Positions 13,233-31,016 of a DNA stretch of 31,016 bases are shown here, piece by piece. Source of the DNA: an uncultured Rhodospirillaceae bacterium. Its GTDB lineage: Bacteria > Pseudomonadota > Alphaproteobacteria > RF32 > CAG-239. The first letter of the stretch is position 1. Each line of letters opens with the position of its first letter. The DNA lies in contig ONQU01000121.1 of NCBI GenBank assembly GCA_900320035.1, forward strand, positions 1 to 31,016, read 5' to 3'. The notes beneath the pieces are model-generated. The model was given only the letters and a program-made list of their open reading frames with translations, was not told the origin of the DNA and did no database searches. Position numbers and translations under genes: made by a program.

Positions 13233-13773
13233 AGTCCGTTTATGGCAAATTTATTTTACCTTTTTCAAAATGGGGGCAATAACATTTGGCGGCGGTTATG
13301 CCATGTTGCCGATTTTACAAAATGAAGTGGTTGCTAAAAAAAGGTGGGTAACAGAAGTCGATTTACTCAATTATTATTCTATCGGTCAATGTACGCCGGG
13401 AATTATTGCCGTGAATGCGGCTTCTTTTATCGGTTATAAATTGCGTGGGTTAAGCGGTTTAGTGAGCGCAACGCTGGGCTTAATGACGCCTTCGATTGGC
13501 TTGGTTTTATTGGTGGCGATGGTGCTGCGACAATATATGGACAGTCCATATTTACAATGGGCGTTTGGCGGTATTCGTATTGGGGTTTTAGCGCTGATTG
13601 TTAATACGGTTATCAATATGTGGCGCGGGAGTGTGCGGTATTGGCGTGATTATGCTGTGTTTATCGGGGCGGCCTTATTGTTGTTTGTTGGTAGATTGCC
13701 GGCGGTAGGTGTGGTGATTGTGGCGGCGATTGTTGCCTTTATTCCTAATTTTTCGCGGAGAAAGAGGTTATGA
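13219..13773 (+). CDS. chrA: Short-chain chromate transporter (CHR family), subunit 1
   Basis: FFKMGAITFGGGYAMLP and IGQCTPGIIAVN CHR motifs. Confidence 0.9.
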   Translation: MIANKVRLWQIYFTFFKMGAITFGGGYAMLPILQNEVVAKKRWVTEVDLLNYYSIGQCTPGIIAVNAASFIGYKLRGLSGLVSATLGLMTPSIGLVLLVAMVLRQYMDSPYLQWAFGGIRIGVLALIVNTVINMWRGSVRYWRDYAVFIGAALLLFVGRLPAVGVVIVAAIVAFIPNFSRRKRL

Positions 13774-26913: not shown

Positions 26914-27141
26914 ATGGCTACAAAACAAACAGTTTTCAAAAGAAAAAGTTGTCCGTTTTCGGGTGAAAATGCGCCGAAGATTGACTATAAAGATGTGAAG
27001 TTGCTTTCTCGTTACATTTCTGAGAAAGGTAAAATTATTCCATCACGTATTACATCTGTTTCGGCTAAAAAACAAAGAGAATTAGCTCGCGCCATCAAAC
27101 GTGCTCGCTATATTGCCTTGTTGCCGTATGTTGCTATGTAG
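26914..27141 (+). CDS. rpsR: 30S ribosomal protein S18
   Basis: [38 protein letters not shown] (alphaproteobacterial type); start at ATG 26914 after GGGAG. Confidence 0.98.
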
Positions 27142-27150
27142 GAGGCTGAT

Positions 27151-27636
27151 ATGGAAGTAATTTTATTGGAACACATTGAAAAGTTAGGCAAAATGGGCGA
27201 TAAAGTAAACGTTAAAAACGGTTATGCTCGTAACTATTTATTGCCACAACAAAAGGCTTTACGTGCTACCGAAAGCAATATGGCTTATTTTGAAGCGCAA
27301 AAGGCTGCTTTAGAAGCACACAATAAAGAATTGCTGGAAACAGCCGGTAAATTAGCCGAATCTTTGAACGGCTTTAACGCCGTATTGATTCGTCAAGCCG
27401 CTGAAACCGGTCAACTTTATGGTTCGGTTACGATTCGTGACATTGCCGGCGCTATTAAAGAAGCCGGTTTTGACGTAGCTCGTCGCTATATTTATTTGGA
27501 AAAGCCGATTAAAGATTTAGGCATTTACCAAATTAAGCTGAATTTGCATCCGGAAGTAACACAAACCATTTTGGTTAACGTTGCTCGTAGTGCAGAAGAC
27601 GCTAAAAAGCAGGCCAAAGCCTATAGTCAAGAATAA
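27151..27636 (+). CDS. rplI: 50S ribosomal protein L9
   Basis: MEVILLE..EKLGKMGDKVNVKNGYARNYLLPQ, GQLYGSVT, LHPEV. Confidence 0.98.
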   Translation: MEVILLEHIEKLGKMGDKVNVKNGYARNYLLPQQKALRATESNMAYFEAQKAALEAHNKELLETAGKLAESLNGFNAVLIRQAAETGQLYGSVTIRDIAGAIKEAGFDVARRYIYLEKPIKDLGIYQIKLNLHPEVTQTILVNVARSAEDAKKQAKAYSQE

Positions 27637-27654
27637 TTTTTTATTCTCAGATTG

Positions 27655-27694
27655 AAAAAAATACCCATTGGTTGATGCTGATGGGTATTTTTTT
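27655..27694 (+). terminator. Bidirectional intrinsic terminator after rplI (repeat copy 1)
   Basis: A7-TACCCATTGGT-TGAT-GCTGATGGGTA-T7. Confidence 0.85.
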
Positions 27695-27695
27695 A

Positions 27696-27724
27696 TTGAC
27701 AAAAAGAAAAAGTTTGATTATATT
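27696..27724 (+). promoter_or_regulatory. Near-consensus sigma70 promoter for the downstream ORF
   Basis: TTGACA-N17-TATATT, starting 1 nt after the terminator T-tract. Confidence 0.75.
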
Positions 27725-27746
27725 AGCTTTATAACACAAATTATTT

Positions 27747-28316
27747 ATGCGTATGAAATTATTAGTATTAAACCCAATAGTATTCCCTCTATTGGCGTTG
27801 ATGCTACCTCGGAAAATTTCCGAGCTTATGGGAAACAAGAGAGTATGGTGGGCTTTGGTCGGATGGCAAATATGTATCCTACCATGGCGAGCCAAGTGGT
27901 GGTTTGTCCATCAAAATCCGCAATATTTCAGCCAGGATGATTGGGTGAAATATTATCGTAAAGCGGCAGACGGTGCCGGTGCATTGCGCCATTTGCGTCA
28001 TTGTGATACCGATATTTGCGAAAAGTTGTGGAACACCTGTGGCTACCACGATGCGAAAAATATTCTCAAATCTCTGCGTCTGTACGAGACCGAACACCTT
28101 AAATTCATGTTGGTTAACAAGGAATTCAACGGTTGGCTGTGGGAGTATACCCAAAGGATGGTGCTTCCGACGGATTTTGTTAAGTCCTTGATATCAGAAA
28201 TTTCCGGAAAGAATGATAAGGATGATATACGTTGGAAAATCATTAAACTGCAGATTGATCGTAATGACGAATTGCGTAAAACACTGAGTAAGGAAGAATT
28301 GAAAAAATTCGCATAA
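27747..28316 (+). CDS. Hypothetical protein with hydrophobic Trp-rich N-terminus
   Basis: 189-aa ORF with its own promoter and terminator; no family recognised; start could be 27753. Confidence 0.7.
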   Translation: MRMKLLVLNPIVFPLLALMLPRKISELMGNKRVWWALVGWQICILPWRAKWWFVHQNPQYFSQDDWVKYYRKAADGAGALRHLRHCDTDICEKLWNTCGYHDAKNILKSLRLYETEHLKFMLVNKEFNGWLWEYTQRMVLPTDFVKSLISEISGKNDKDDIRWKIIKLQIDRNDELRKTLSKEELKKFA

Positions 28317-28320
28317 CAAG

Positions 28321-28356
28321 AAATACCCGCTGGTTGAAACCGGCGGGTGTTTTTTT
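28321..28356 (+). terminator. Intrinsic terminator (repeat copy 2, homologous to 27659..27694)
   Basis: AAATACCCGCTGGT-TGAA-ACCGGCGGGTGT-T6; 28/36 identical to copy 1. Confidence 0.85.
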
Positions 28357-28404
28357 GTGCCTGAAAAATTTGTCAAAAAAATCTAAAAAATCGGTAAATT
28401 TTGC

Positions 28405-28433
28405 TTGATTTCATAAAAAAACTGTGCTAGATT
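28405..28433 (+). promoter_or_regulatory. Sigma70-type promoter with extended -10
   Basis: TTGATT-N17-TAGATT with TG at the extended -10 position; predicted +1 near 28440. Confidence 0.6.
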
Positions 28434-28531
28434 ATAGACAATTACCAAATTATCTTTGTGGATTTTTCCGTACGTATTATAAATAATAATTATGGAAAGA
28501 GATAAGTCATAATAGATAAGCCGAATATAAC

Positions 28532-28559
28532 TGTCATTCCGAACGTATGTGAGGAATCT
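28532..28559 (+). repeat. CGTC-class (dRS3/RPE-like) REP palindrome, copy 1
   Basis: TGTCATTCCGAACGTATGTGAGGAATCT fits the YGTCATTCY-N-RGAATCT pattern. Confidence 0.75.
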
Positions 28560-28856
28560 TCGTACTTTAGTGCGATTTTGACAGACATGTTTTCGCGCTT
28601 AAGATATTGAGACAAAATCAAATTCCGCAGGTTTGGTAATATTCATTAAAATTTTTTTCATTCGCTGATAATAATGTTATACCCAAAAGCATTTATCGAT
28701 TAATTTGAAGATCCCTTGACGCATTTGCCTAATGGCAAAGCGAGGGAAGACAATTAAATTCGAAGATGCCCTGAATTTTGCGTTTCGTAAAATAGGTATG
28801 ACAATTTATTTTCAGCGTCAATATAAATTAAACAGCTCCCCCGCACTAAAGTGCAG

Positions 28857-28895
28857 AGATTCTCACGTCGCAACAAGTTGCTCCTCAGAATGACA
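28857..28895 (-). repeat. CGTC-class REP palindrome, copy 2 (inverted)
   Basis: Minus strand reads TGTCATTCTGAGGAGCAACTTGTTGCGACGTGAGAATCT. Confidence 0.75.
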
Positions 28896-28901
28896 CAGAA
28901 T

Positions 28902-28935
28902 CGTCATTCCGAGTAAGCGTAGTGACGAGGAATCT
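28902..28935 (+). repeat. CGTC-class REP palindrome, copy 3 (inverted doublet with copy 2)
   Basis: CGTCATTCCGAGTAAGCGTAGTGACGAGGAATCT, 6 nt from copy 2. Confidence 0.75.
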
Positions 28936-28995
28936 CCGAACGCAGTTCGGCAACGGAGCAAATAAAAAGAATATTAACAATAAAATTTCAAAGAT

Positions 28996-31016
28996 ATGGC
29001 AAACGTAAAGAGTTTAGCAGCCCGCATCATCATGATGGTGCTCTGCACAGTTATGGGTTTCACCACTCTGACCTCTTGTAACGAGGGTGGCAAATACGAT
29101 ATGGCTCCAGCGAGTGAACCTGTTGTTCGTGATGGATACTCTTTTAAGAGCTATCAGACCACTGACGGTGCTCAAGTAGATGGTACATGGTCTCAGACCA
29201 CTGACGGCATTGTCACCGACAGTGCTAAGGCTTCGGCCACCATCCAGGCAGCCGTTAAGCTGCAGGAGGCTGAGATTGAGATCAATAGCACGTTGAAAAA
29301 TAACAATGTGTGGTCATTTGATTCAATTTCACAACCTACAGCCACGGTAGACGGCTATCGCTGGACAGGCTATATGAGCAAGAACGACGGCCAGAAGGCT
29401 ATCTTCTCGTTCAACAGCCGCACGGCAGGTCTGCGTAACTTGGTTATAGGCCTTGAGCCTGTGGCAGTGCGTTCCACTGGAACGACCAACACCGCCACTC
29501 AAGTTCACAGTGGTGAGCGTGAGCGCATGCTGACTATAGAGGATTTCATGGCAACTGTCCGCGAGACAGGTACCGGCCGTAGCAATACGGTTGAAATTCC
29601 CTTGCAGGCCAGCTATCTCAGGTACATTCCGGAGAATGCTCCTGTCGTTGTGGACAGCATCATCGTATGGAAGGATGGCGAAGAAATTCGCTCATTCTAT
29701 AAGGTATTAGCCACCACCGAGCAGGCTAAGGTTCAGATTGTTTACATTCTGAGCGATAACAGTCGCGTCGACGGACCGGCTTACTCTATCGAAGTACCCC
29801 GTCAGCTTTGGGGTTCCGAAGACAAGATGTACGTTTCTACTTTTGAGCAGAACATTGGCACTTCTTTCAGCGGCCAGTCGGTCGTTGAAGAGGCAAAGAG
29901 CGATGAGTATTCCAATGAAAACTTCACAGTTTCTTACGAGACCACGAAGCGCTCTTGGGAGCACACTCAGCTTGATGTCAACGGCAACAAGGCTGTAACA
30001 GCCCTGTTTGGTAAGCTGCCACACATCATCTTCAATCATGGCGCATTAAGCCATGACTTCGGTAAGCTTCCTCTTGACGTAGTGAATACGTCAGTTGAAG
30101 TTGTTGATGAAAACTCCGTCGTTGAGGATGGCAATAGCTATGAGGTTAAGCAGCTGCGCAATACCATCAGCACCAACTACGGTGTTGATTCAACAGGTAT
30201 TGTTGCTCAGCAGGTCATTTCAACAGTTGACCTTCTGAAGCTGCAAGAGGTTGTAAAGCTGGACACCATCACAGTGGTGATGTCACAGAACTGGCTTCCC
30301 AGCCAGGGCACCTTTACTTGGAAGTTGACGGAGCATTACTCCAACAACACCACCAAGGACACCACCATCGTTTGGTCAAGCGCTCGTTCAATCGAGGCCA
30401 ACCATTTCGAGAAGGAAGATGTCAAGAAGGCCCTGAGTGAGGGTTCGGTGAAGACCGAGGTTGCTCATAGCGACGTCAAGAGCGTTGTTAATCCTTCATA
30501 TACCATCCGCTACAAGGTGGCAACCGCCACTTACAGCTGGGTGAACACCTTCGTTAAGGAAAACGCTACTTCTGTCGTTACCTCTTCTCTTCCCGAGAAT
30601 GTTACGCTGAAGTACAAGGGCTACACTTTTGTTCAGCCCGCTGTTGAGGTTAGCTACACTCGCGAGAGCGGTTCGCTGACCGAATCCTATAACGACGGCT
30701 CAACCGTGGTTTACGACTACAAGTCGAATTTCACGGAGAGTGTTAAGGGTTATAGCAACTCAGCTGCCAAAGCGATTGCAACTGGTACGCTCACTGTAAA
30801 TGCCGCTGTTCCCACAGGTTGGGAGCTTCTCTCAAAGACTAATGAGTACTTTATGTTCAATCACACTGTTGGTGCCAAGTACAGAGTTAATTACTCTGAT
30901 GGATCCTATCAGGAGTTTGCATTTAGTGAAGTTATTAAGGGCGAGAGCGCTTCTACTTCTGTCGAGACGACAGAGGACGAGGTGAGCGAGCGCGTTGGTG
31001 CTCCTGCTGACTATAT
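28996..31016 (+). CDS. Large Bacteroidetes-type lipoprotein, 3'-partial (>=673 aa)
   Basis: Hand translation from ATG 28996 is stop-free to the right edge: MANVKSLAARIIMMVLCTVMGFTTLTS|CNEGG (lipobox LTSC), then a Ser/Thr/Val-rich beta-type body. There is no SD, and Lys codons are about 34 AAG to 3 AAA. Missing from the ORF track. Confidence 0.85.
   Translation, partial: MANVKSLAARIIMMVLCTVMGFTTLTSCNEGGKYDMAPASEPVVRDGYSFKSYQTTDGAQVDGTWSQTTDGIVTDSAKASATIQAAVKLQEAEIEINSTLKNNNVWSFDSISQPTATVDGYRWTGYMSKNDGQKAIFSFNSRTAGLRNLVIGLEPVAVRSTGTTNTATQVHSGERERMLTIEDFMATVRETGTGRSNTVEIPLQASYLRYIPENAPVVVDSIIVWKDGEEIRSFYKVLATTEQAKVQIVYILSDNSRVDGPAYSIEVPRQLWGSEDKMYVSTFEQNIGTSFSGQSVVEEAKSDEYSNENFTVSYETTKRSWEHTQLDVNGNKAVTALFGKLPHIIFNHGALSHDFGKLPLDVVNTSVEVVDENSVVEDGNSYEVKQLRNTISTNYGVDSTGIVAQQVISTVDLLKLQEVVKLDTITVVMSQNWLPSQGTFTWKLTEHYSNNTTKDTTIVWSSARSIEANHFEKEDVKKALSEGSVKTEVAHSDVKSVVNPSYTIRYKVATATYSWVNTFVKENATSVVTSSLPENVTLKYKGYTFVQPAVEVSYTRESGSLTESYNDGSTVVYDYKSNFTESVKGYSNSAAKAIATGTLTVNAAVPTGWELLSKTNEYFMFNHTVGAKYRVNYSDGSYQEFAFSEVIKGESASTSVETTEDEVSERVGAPADY

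Follow-up and report, generated by a model that had tools for sequence, protein, structure and literature searches.

The non-coding segment at positions 28440–28959 of a contig from an uncultured Rhodospirillaceae bacterium probably forms, together with the nucleotides up to the ATG at 28996, a transcribed 5′ untranslated region (UTR) of about 555 nt that precedes a highly transcribed surface-lipoprotein operon. Its closed domains (D1, D2 and D3) would stabilize the mRNA and keep the start region open, a mechanism that we infer. The window denotes here the whole 31,016-nt stretch of DNA that was analysed; its own assembly (G000) comprises 1.23 Mb in 155 contigs, has 40% GC and is 78% complete. 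An initial annotation, made from the sequence alone, had considered three identities for the segment: a large free-standing non-coding RNA (ncRNA), a regulatory or structural leader, or the RNA or DNA end of a mobile element. The leader is the option favoured by our data, as the segment is non-coding, lies behind a conserved promoter, is covered by RNA contigs from 28454 onward and has homologs with the same three-domain layout. Nothing points to a free-standing ncRNA or to the end of a mobile element. Much of the fold comes from five dispersed, DNA-level palindromes of the repetitive extragenic palindromic (REP) type and not from a single large RNA.

Fold and conservation of the leader backbone

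All stems listed in the initial annotation for D1, D2 and D3 were recovered by reading the sequence, and together with their linkers they make up the following backbone.

28441–28530, plus strand: 5′ half of the D1 backbone, with the 5′ strands of stems P1 (28441–51) and P2 (28457–62), a hairpin TTTCC/GGAAA, the invariant ATGGAAAGAGATAAG and the P5 5′ strand AGATAAGCCGAAT
28441–51 and 28630–40, plus strand: D1 closing stem P1, ATTACCAAATT/GGTTTGGTAAT, from sequence and fold
28457–62 and 28624–29, plus strand: D1 stem P2, TGTGGA/TCCGCA, from sequence and fold
28531–36 and 28579–84, plus strand: inner D1 stem CTGTCA/TGACAG, flanking REP insert 1
28588–28640, plus strand: 3′ half of the D1 backbone, with the P5 3′ strand, the invariant block TTGAGACAAAATCAAATTCCG and the 3′ strands of P2 (28624–29) and P1 (28630–40)
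28641–28662, plus strand: conserved A/U-rich D1–D2 linker ATTCATTAAAATTTTTTTCATT, in which no intrinsic terminator is predicted and through which an RNA contig (28454–28698) reads
28663–28817, plus strand: D2, with the closing helix CGCTGA (28663–68)/TCAGCG (28812–17) around a REP cluster
28675–83 and 28795–803: D2 stem TGTTATACC/GGTATGACA
28804–28840, plus strand: backbone linker TTTATTTTCAGCGTCAATATAAATTAAAC and 5′ strand of the D3 closing helix (GCTCC, 28835–39), near-invariant in main-family loci except the divergent pair L046/L052
28835–39 and 28955–59, plus strand: D3 closing helix GCTCC/GGAGC, the end of which is separated by 36 nt from the ATG at 28996
28937–28959, plus strand: backbone hairpin CCGAAC-GCA-GTTCGG and 3′ strand of the D3 closing helix (GGAGC, 28955–59), with GTTCGGC.ACGG(G)AG conserved

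The minimum free energy structure computed with RNAfold for 28440–28959 consists of these three closed domains, and its energy is −162.8 kcal/mol (100 dinucleotide shuffles, −107.5 ± 6.8 kcal/mol; z −8.18). With a z-score of −5.49 the antisense strand is well folded too, which suggests that part of the signal reflects DNA palindromy. Excision of the REPs left a 300-nt backbone that was still better folded than its shuffles, with z-scores of −5.27 for the sense and −2.81 for the antisense strand. Likewise, D1 minus its REP scored −5.85 and −2.59, respectively, and REP-free D1 homologs ranged from −3.1 to −5.0. The five REP palindromes give roughly half of the folding signal. Strong z-scores in intergenic DNA can thus be half repeat-driven, and repeats ought to be masked before an ncRNA is called. 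The whole leader of locus L056 (365 nt) yielded −7.97 in sense and −5.33 in antisense orientation. When seven full-length leaders were folded whole, the long-range pairing of the first 14 nt (P1) had a probability of 0.57–0.92, and the end of D3 in REP-free relatives folds as CUCCC..CGAAC-loop-GUUCG..GGGAG.

Two open reading frames (ORFs) of 53 amino acids (28732–28893, plus strand) and 43 amino acids (28490–28621, minus strand) lie in the segment. Neither has a match in Pfam, and because both cross REPs that relatives lack, the description of the segment as free of ORFs holds in substance. A failure to match the segment by eye to known RNAs was confirmed with Rfam covariance models, which at gathering thresholds gave zero matches in the whole window. 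With E values up to 10, the region 28440–28995 returned only two weak antisense matches of 18.8–18.9 bits at 28611–28688 (ceN30, E 0.37; STnc230, E 6), the gathering scores being 65 and 50; the remaining weak matches centre on the upstream terminator and promoter region. Scanning of the REP-poor homolog L056 assigned no Rfam family either.

Thirteen loci carrying alleles of the downstream lipoprotein were fetched, including one in G011, a metagenome-assembled genome labelled Alphaproteobacteria bacterium from roe-deer jejunum. Twelve upstream regions were aligned, with L075 as the thirteenth. They share an A-rich region from about 28366 and the promoter, followed by a conserved leader backbone of about 300–370 nt that comprises D1, the A/U-rich linker, the D2 closing helix, a conserved linker, the D3 closing helix with the hairpin CGAAC/GTTCG, and a final A/U-rich stretch of some 36 nt up to the ATG. 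The genes behind this module are 13 divergent alleles of a single orphan lipoprotein family. Leader blocks of G000 and G011 are 79–91% identical (91% in the 3′ half of D1, 28588–28640) and include an identical run of 45 nt; between the same genomes, ribosomal protein genes are 92% and the neighbouring protein-coding region 71% identical. Across 11–13 loci, D1 contains invariant runs of 30–45 nt, whereas the encoded proteins are only 54–87% identical. The leader of L048 is 95.7% identical to that of the window and its protein only 58%, which shows recombination.

A covariance model built from seven D1 sequences was used to search 50 genomes of the genus and, within its order, about 128 genomes from 19 further genera. 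One further diverged copy was found, in the genus genome G067, and none in the other genera. Weak matches with E values of 0.06–0.85 (in G063, G007, G001, G018, G027, G014, G033 and contig C97 of G000) fall in coding or unrelated DNA and were judged non-homologous. The leader occurs in three of the 50 genus genomes, always once per genome and directly upstream of a lipoprotein ORF. A protein-pattern scan of JGI metagenomes gave no relatives, and a scan for exact 20-mers one true locus (L044) and one chance match in unrelated GC-rich DNA (L045). We conclude that the leader family is small, genus-restricted, new and absent from Rfam. Its designation as the best candidate for an undescribed system was too strong. 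A degenerate partial copy of the D1 interior, GAGATTAAGTCG..TAAGCAGAAT..GCGGCTTAATTACTTGAGATTAAATCAAAT, is located beside REPs on contig C47 of G000 (13313–13422; L070:1501–1610), where it abuts the 3′ end of a convergent GC-rich gene; it may be a relic of another leader.

The genomic context of the module varies. It follows rplI and ORF189 in the window and in L048/L050, rplI directly in L046, a tRNA fragment in L056, and REPs in L044 and L075; the upstream flank of L056 is homologous to that of G011. In G067 the module follows a gene for a NUDIX (RppH-like) hydrolase, which is itself preceded by an S41 peptidase gene.

The G067 copy (L061, G067:C86, minus strand, 1156–795, with its downstream ORF at L061:3–794, minus strand) comprises the whole promoter–leader module, including a homologous promoter and the motifs CTGGAAAGAGA and ATCAAATTCCGCAGG. 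It scored 34.5 bits with the covariance model, against 131–170 bits for full-length leaders of the main family. Its predicted fold again has three closed domains, and the A/U-rich start region behind them is open (z −7.67 sense, −4.86 antisense). P1 is formed by AAAAAAUUAUC.CUAGCCUG paired with CAGGUUAG.GAUAAUUUUUU and differs in sequence from the main family, P5 reads AUAUUAAGU-UUCG-ACUUGAUGU, and the D2 closing helix, AGGAUUU/AAAUCCU, is found at the same position around one REP. The downstream gene in G067, the third species with this module, encodes a lipoprotein that has no detectable similarity to the main family (BLASTP E 0.8, limited to the start of the signal peptide) and no relatives in the genus.

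In model-fitted alignments, 98.9% of the P1 cells are paired, with three compensatory and three wobble-compatible pairs. D1 is conserved and its P1 stem covaries through G067; G011 and G067 have not retained the inner D1 helices. Every locus retains the D2 closing helix, with TACTG/CAGTA in L052 instead of CGCTG/CAGCG (two compensatory pairs) and wobbles in L046 (U.G) and L053 (G.U). Both-sided pair changes number 8–9 overall, compared with 2.5–2.7 ± 1.2 in shuffles and 1–6 in slid controls. Support from covariation is real but thin, its main sources being a single diverged sequence and an alignment biased towards the model: the covariation expected by the initial annotation is present in part, derives mostly from G067 and allele L052, and is scarcely seen in D1, which is almost invariant within the main family. 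Judged from these sequences, the three-domain plan is an inherited feature of the leader family. In sum, and in keeping with the initial annotation, the segment surpasses its shuffles in folding energy, has homologs with some covariation, matches neither an Rfam family nor an insertion sequence (IS) and is covered by RNA.

Palindromic inserts in the domain loops

The REP-type units within the leader share an architecture of GTCATnCC, a variable stem-loop with compensated changes, and GGnATCT. A strict pattern, GTCATNCN..NGNATC with complementary N positions, returned 33 units from the 1.23-Mb assembly, but zero from the reversed sequence used as control. Three strict and two decayed units lie within 28533–28935, that is, five of about 35 recognizable REPs of the genome are concentrated in 0.5 kb. 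Their orientations across 28533–28934 are plus, minus, minus, minus, plus, as in clusters of alternating orientation.

28531–28587, plus strand: REP insert 1 in the apical loop of P5, composed of the unit GTCATTCCGAACGTATGTGAGGAATC (28533–58; strict pattern match) and the hairpin CGTAC-TTTA-GTGCG, with flanks CTGTCA/TGACAG
28700–28756, minus strand: REP insert 2, previously described as a long stacked hairpin, AGATCCCTTGACG-[variable stem-loop]-CGAGGGAAGAC
28757–28803, minus strand: REP insert 3, a slightly decayed unit AGATGCCCTGAATTTTGCG-TTT-CGTAAAATAGGTATGAC, with separate matches in G034, G022, G006, G011 and G030
28841–28936, both orientations: D3 REP cluster with the hairpin GCAC-TAAA-GTGC (28841–56), REP 4 (minus, 28858–94) and REP 5 (plus, 28903–34), strict pattern matches

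REP insert 1 is confined to the window and its two closest relatives, L050 and L048. Ten other loci (G011, L044, L047, L053, L054, L055, L056, L075, L046 and L052) lack it and have the same hairpin, AAGCCGAA/TTCGGGCTT, closed by a short loop. This shows that the REPs sit in loops and leave the closing stems unbroken, as the initial annotation had claimed. The REPs of D3 are missing in six loci (L056, L055, G011, L053, L047 and L075) and replaced by other REPs in four (L044, L054, L046 and L052), and D2 contains REPs in every locus, with differing types and numbers. The architecture of REP insert 3 is that of the unit GTCATGCC...GGCATCT in L044, L056 and other loci.

Dispersal of the inserts was evident from a search of 60 related genomes, in which the pieces 28532–74, 28700–56, 28753–813, 28841–900 and 28898–946 match separately and at many places. 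REP insert 2 has more than 15 full or partial copies in its own genome, often at contig ends, and many elsewhere in the genus, and pieces of the D3 cluster match separately in G036, G013, G039, G008, G035, G011 and G024. Of 36 genus genomes sampled, 22 have REPs scattered through their extragenic DNA. In G000, tandem arrays with a repeat length of about 86 nt are cut off by contig ends (C7:8333–8544, C70:1–270 and C132:22400–22622). As REPs evidently break up the assembly, the counts given here are lower bounds. Taken together, the REPs are lineage-specific, secondary inserts that are tolerated in loops.

A REP-associated tyrosine transposase (RAYT; Y1 family, PF01797) was not found in the 78% complete G000. 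PF01797 proteins are encoded in 18 of 50 genus genomes and look like ordinary IS200/IS605 copies; the three loci that were inspected have their own IS200/IS605-type hairpins and no GTCAT..ATC units. A REP–RAYT system was therefore rejected, and since no cognate RAYT was found the units are termed REP-like rather than proven REP–RAYT elements.

Promoter, transcription and start region

The flanks of the domains are formed by the following elements.

28321–28358, plus strand: terminator (hairpin plus T-run) that ends the upstream ORF189 unit and bounds the intergenic region on the left; only terminator-like Rfam noise matches
28366–28404, plus strand: conserved A-rich stretch TTGTCAAAAAAATCTAAAAAATCGGTAAA upstream of the promoter, with which the shared module begins on the left
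28405–28433, plus strand: predicted sigma-70-type promoter with −35 TTGATT (28405–10), a 17-nt spacer and an extended −10 TGcTAGATT (28425–33); predicted +1 near 28440
28960–28995, plus strand: A/U-rich start region with the conserved GAATATTAAC and without a Shine–Dalgarno sequence, from sequence and pairing probabilities
28996–31016, plus strand: 5′ part of the orphan, hypervariable lipoprotein gene (about 941 amino acids in full; signal peptide ending LTS|C; 50% GC compared with 40% for the genome)

Homology with loci of other genomic contexts begins only 3′ of the terminator of the ORF189 unit, at 28364–28370, whether the module follows rplI (L046), a tRNA fragment (G011 and L056) or REPs (L044 and L075). 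ORF189 (27747–28316, within the unit at 27659–28356) belongs to no Pfam family and represents an indel located between rplI and the leader: the module stands directly after rplI in L046, and in G011 no ORF189 follows rplI. The promoter proposed in the initial annotation matches the consensus at only 8 of 12 positions and is not listed by a consensus promoter scan, yet it is kept, in the form TTGATT-17-TGcTAnnTT, in all eight relatives that reach this far (L046, L044, L056, L055, G011, L075, L048/L050 and G067). The motif TGCTTGATTT also occurs 5′ of a tRNA gene on contig C11. A Bacteroidota-type −7 box (TATCTTTG, 28452–59) was rejected as it has no TTTG −33 partner and as an RNA contig begins at 28454, upstream of such a start.

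Twenty public runs, drawn from 13 studies of the gut of cattle and sheep, contain parts of the locus. For three of the metatranscriptome runs and for one DNA run, contigs were mapped to 27100–30100. RNA run X10 yielded contigs at 28454–28698, 28669–28832 and 28845–28980, the last of which runs into the ATG of an L048-type allele, and RNA run X4 yielded contigs at 28485–28677 and 29031–30100. Neither run has a contig over 28096–28453 or over rpsF–rplI (27100–27636). By contrast, the region is covered in DNA run X1, where one contig spans 28251–28853 colinearly and no strand-switch joints occur. This pattern fits with a start near 28440 and an abundant transcript of leader plus coding sequence (CDS), and it argues against both DNA carry-over and inversion. 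The one hint that the leader might prolong mRNA half-life is that RNA runs assembled contigs of leader and CDS and not the ribosomal protein genes of the same organism. No terminator-like site was predicted between 28200 and 29100, including after D1, D2 or D3; an attenuator was rejected on this basis.

Within 30 nt of the lipoprotein ATG there is no GGAG-type motif, whereas most other genes of the window have GGAG, AGGA or GAGG 6–10 nt 5′ of the start. The nearest GGAG lies 36–40 nt upstream, inside the D3 closing helix. In the seven leaders, the mean pairing probability from −30 to +20 around the ATG is 0.27–0.49 versus 0.62–0.67 for other leader parts. The sequence GGUAAUAUUC at the 3′ end of D1 (28633–28643) is complementary to the near-invariant GAAUAUUAAC (28969–28978), about 20 nt 5′ of the ATG. 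A long-range contact enclosing D2 and D3 is thus possible from complementarity; two variants (G to A in L056, L047 and L075) are uncompensated. A short upstream ORF, ATGGAAAGAGATAAGTCATAA (MERDKS*), was rejected as a candidate since its ATG is CTG in G011, L053 and G067 and its length varies.

The lipoprotein belongs to no Pfam family and has 16 relatives at 54–99% identity in a collection of 5.8 billion proteins. Its family is present in two of 50 genus genomes, and once in G000. Between alleles L050 and L048, identity is 97.3% over the leader plus roughly the first 98 nt of the CDS, which encode the signal peptide; the next 715 nt are unalignable, and identity thereafter is 76% (window 28996–29810; L050:3001–3813). 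Alleles are thus exchanged behind a constant module of promoter, leader and signal peptide, and the N-terminal part of the mature lipoprotein is hypervariable between strains of one species. Beyond the end of the window, the spacer 3′ of the lipoprotein gene is also conserved (L046:3828–4089, L048:5806–6086, L056:3053–3374 and homologs). It contains a hairpin GTGTTGGTG/CACCAACAC, one to three REPs and a final GGGAG-loop-CTCCC hairpin just 5′ of a second gene for a secreted protein or lipoprotein.

Based on these features we propose that P1 engages the 5′ end from about +2 and, together with the closed domains, would protect the mRNA from 5′-end-dependent decay of the RppH/RNase E/RNase J type. 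The closed domains would also keep the repeats folded on themselves, and the A/U-rich start region would thereby stay single-stranded for Shine–Dalgarno-independent initiation. REPs may persist only if they land in loops, stem-breaking insertions being removed by selection, which would explain why the closing stems survive. In uncultured Alphaproteobacteria of the ruminant gut, this leader family drives apparently abundant, hypervariable surface lipoproteins, and it lacks the Shine–Dalgarno sequence on which the genome otherwise relies. If the leader stabilizes or regulates the mRNA, it offers a handle on the expression of the main variable surface antigens of these bacteria.

Alternative explanations and relation to known systems

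Several observations weigh against the leader as described. Stabilization of the mRNA and insulation of the start region are putative roles. The z-scores of D1 from L056 are equal for the sense and antisense strands. D1 is nearly invariant in the main family, where RNAalifold finds no compensatory pair, several inner D1 pairs are broken in G011 and L046, and most of the double-sided changes come from a single sequence, G067, in an alignment fitted to the model. Logan contigs reveal neither 5′ ends nor strand, nor whether one transcript runs through. Furthermore, P1 may alternate with a local hairpin, AUCAAAUU-CCGCA-GGUUUGGU, which is just as invariant and whose loop contains the sole variation of the block. 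Finally, the strong conservation of unpaired D1 sequence points to a specific binding partner, which the leader explanation does not name.

A bolder version of the leader explanation, which we regard as rather unlikely, takes up this last point. The locus would then be a portable expression module of promoter and three domains, maintained by selection on RNA structure and recombined, with the first signal-peptide codons, before unrelated hypervariable lipoprotein genes; the invariant unpaired part of D1 would bind a factor that controls the Shine–Dalgarno-less translation, and the closed domains would be safe landing sites for REPs. If true, gut Alphaproteobacteria would possess a cis-regulatory RNA of a new class that is linked to the variation of their surface antigens.

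The strongest rival, in our estimate unlikely, is a responsive regulatory leader in which the invariant and partly unpaired D1 sequence (ATGGAAAGAGATAAG, GAGACAAAAUCAAAUUCCG) binds a ligand, a protein or a small RNA, and a switch between P1 and the local hairpin AUCAAAUU/GGUUUGGU controls the lipoprotein gene. Such a function, which would be new given the negative Rfam search, is compatible with the persistence of the invariant D1 runs in front of divergent proteins, with the presence of two near-identical 5′ strands, ACCAAAUU and AUCAAAUU, that compete for one 3′ strand, and with the restriction of the sole variation to the local-hairpin loop. However, no expression platform is visible, as there is neither an intrinsic terminator nor a Shine–Dalgarno sequence to be sequestered, RNA contigs read through D1 into D2, and the inner helices of D1 are not conserved in G011 and G067. 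A gene for CsrA is absent from G000 and G011, which also led us to reject CsrA titration at the four GGA motifs.

It appears quite improbable that the segment has no function beyond that of the promoter, being a dumping ground for REPs whose backbone similarity results from recent kinship or recombination and whose folds are a by-product of A/T-rich palindromic DNA. The accumulation of five REPs in 0.5 kb, the equally REP-filled downstream intercistronic spacer, the antisense strand that also beats its shuffles, and the recombination evident from the nearly identical leaders of L048 and the window are what such a scenario would predict. It is difficult to reconcile, though, with a REP-free backbone that retains a z-score of about −5 and a sense-strand bias, with the preservation of P1, P5 and the D2 helix by different sequences in the strongly divergent G067, and with leader blocks that are better conserved between G000 and G011 than the neighbouring protein-coding region.

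We hold it to be very improbable that D1 alone, or D1–D3, is a free-standing, trans-acting ncRNA that merely happens to lie upstream of the lipoprotein gene. D1 is indeed compact, closed, conserved and about 145 nt long, starting at the predicted +1, and the depth of the X10 contigs is higher over D1–D2 (13 and 12.6) than over D3 (3.4), contig depth being no measure of expression. Against this stand the lack of a terminator after any of the three domains, the occurrence of the element once per genome and always directly before a lipoprotein ORF, and RNA contigs that tile the segment up to the ATG and in one case continue into it. Least probable of all is a DNA-level element. This would be either a promoter segment that inverts between the arms of a 9-bp inverted repeat, ATTACCAAA/TTTGGTAAT, or the terminus of a mobile cassette with lipoprotein genes. 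The repeat does flank about 190 bp 5′ of a variable surface-protein gene, the module has two unrelated cargos and at least four different genomic settings, and several short contigs break within D1, but the orientation is the same in all ten D1-spanning loci, the DNA contig at 28251–28853 is colinear and has no strand-switch joints (contigs drop rare variants such as a low-frequency inversion), the conserved −35 and −10 elements (28405–28433) lie outside the repeat-bounded segment, upstream of the left repeat at 28441, an A to G variant in L055 keeps an RNA G.U pair and breaks the DNA repeat, and no recombinase gene was seen in the fetched flanks, which are too short to exclude one and were not systematically screened with Pfam. 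An inverton was rejected on account of the uniform orientation and the missing inversion joints.

A leader that stabilizes its mRNA has parallels in the 5′ UTR of E. coli ompA and the leader of B. subtilis aprE, in which 5′-terminal stem-loops act as mRNA stabilizers in leaders of 58–133 nt. The similarities include a long leader in front of a gene for an abundant envelope protein, a helix that engages the 5′ end close to the start, only a few nucleotides away (P1 is predicted to begin at +2 of the inferred +1) and transcripts that are apparently abundant in metatranscriptomes. By contrast, the leader described here is 370–555 nt long, has three domains and lacks a Shine–Dalgarno sequence, and its likeness to ompA and aprE is one of inferred function.

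Correia (CREE) and ERIC-type elements are small palindromic repeats in UTRs of Neisseria and enterobacterial genes that can affect transcript processing. Like the units studied here, they are palindromic repeats that are co-transcribed in the UTRs of surface-protein genes and fold into hairpins; unlike them, our units show no terminal inverted repeats with target duplications. The resemblance to the REP, BIME and REPIN sequences of Proteobacteria extends to short imperfect palindromes with conserved ends (GTCATnCC...GGnATCT), compensated variable stems, extragenic dispersal, clusters of alternating orientation, tandem arrays and a location in transcribed but untranslated regions of an operon. 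Classical REPs are found mostly in 3′ UTRs or between cistrons, whereas here five of them occupy a 5′ leader inside RNA domains, and a RAYT-type transposase was not found in the genome.

The Rickettsia palindromic elements, which are nested insertions in structured RNAs and in genes (tmRNA, RNase P RNA and protein), differ from our repeats in that they are unrelated in sequence and in that the host in our case is an mRNA leader. What they have in common is the insertion of palindromes into loops of a pre-existing structure whose closing helices remain intact, which in the present leader is shown for D1 and D3 by REP-free relatives. With relatives in which the same loop positions are empty or filled by one or several inserts, the locus represents a natural before-and-after series of palindromic repeats colonizing a structured RNA without destroying it.

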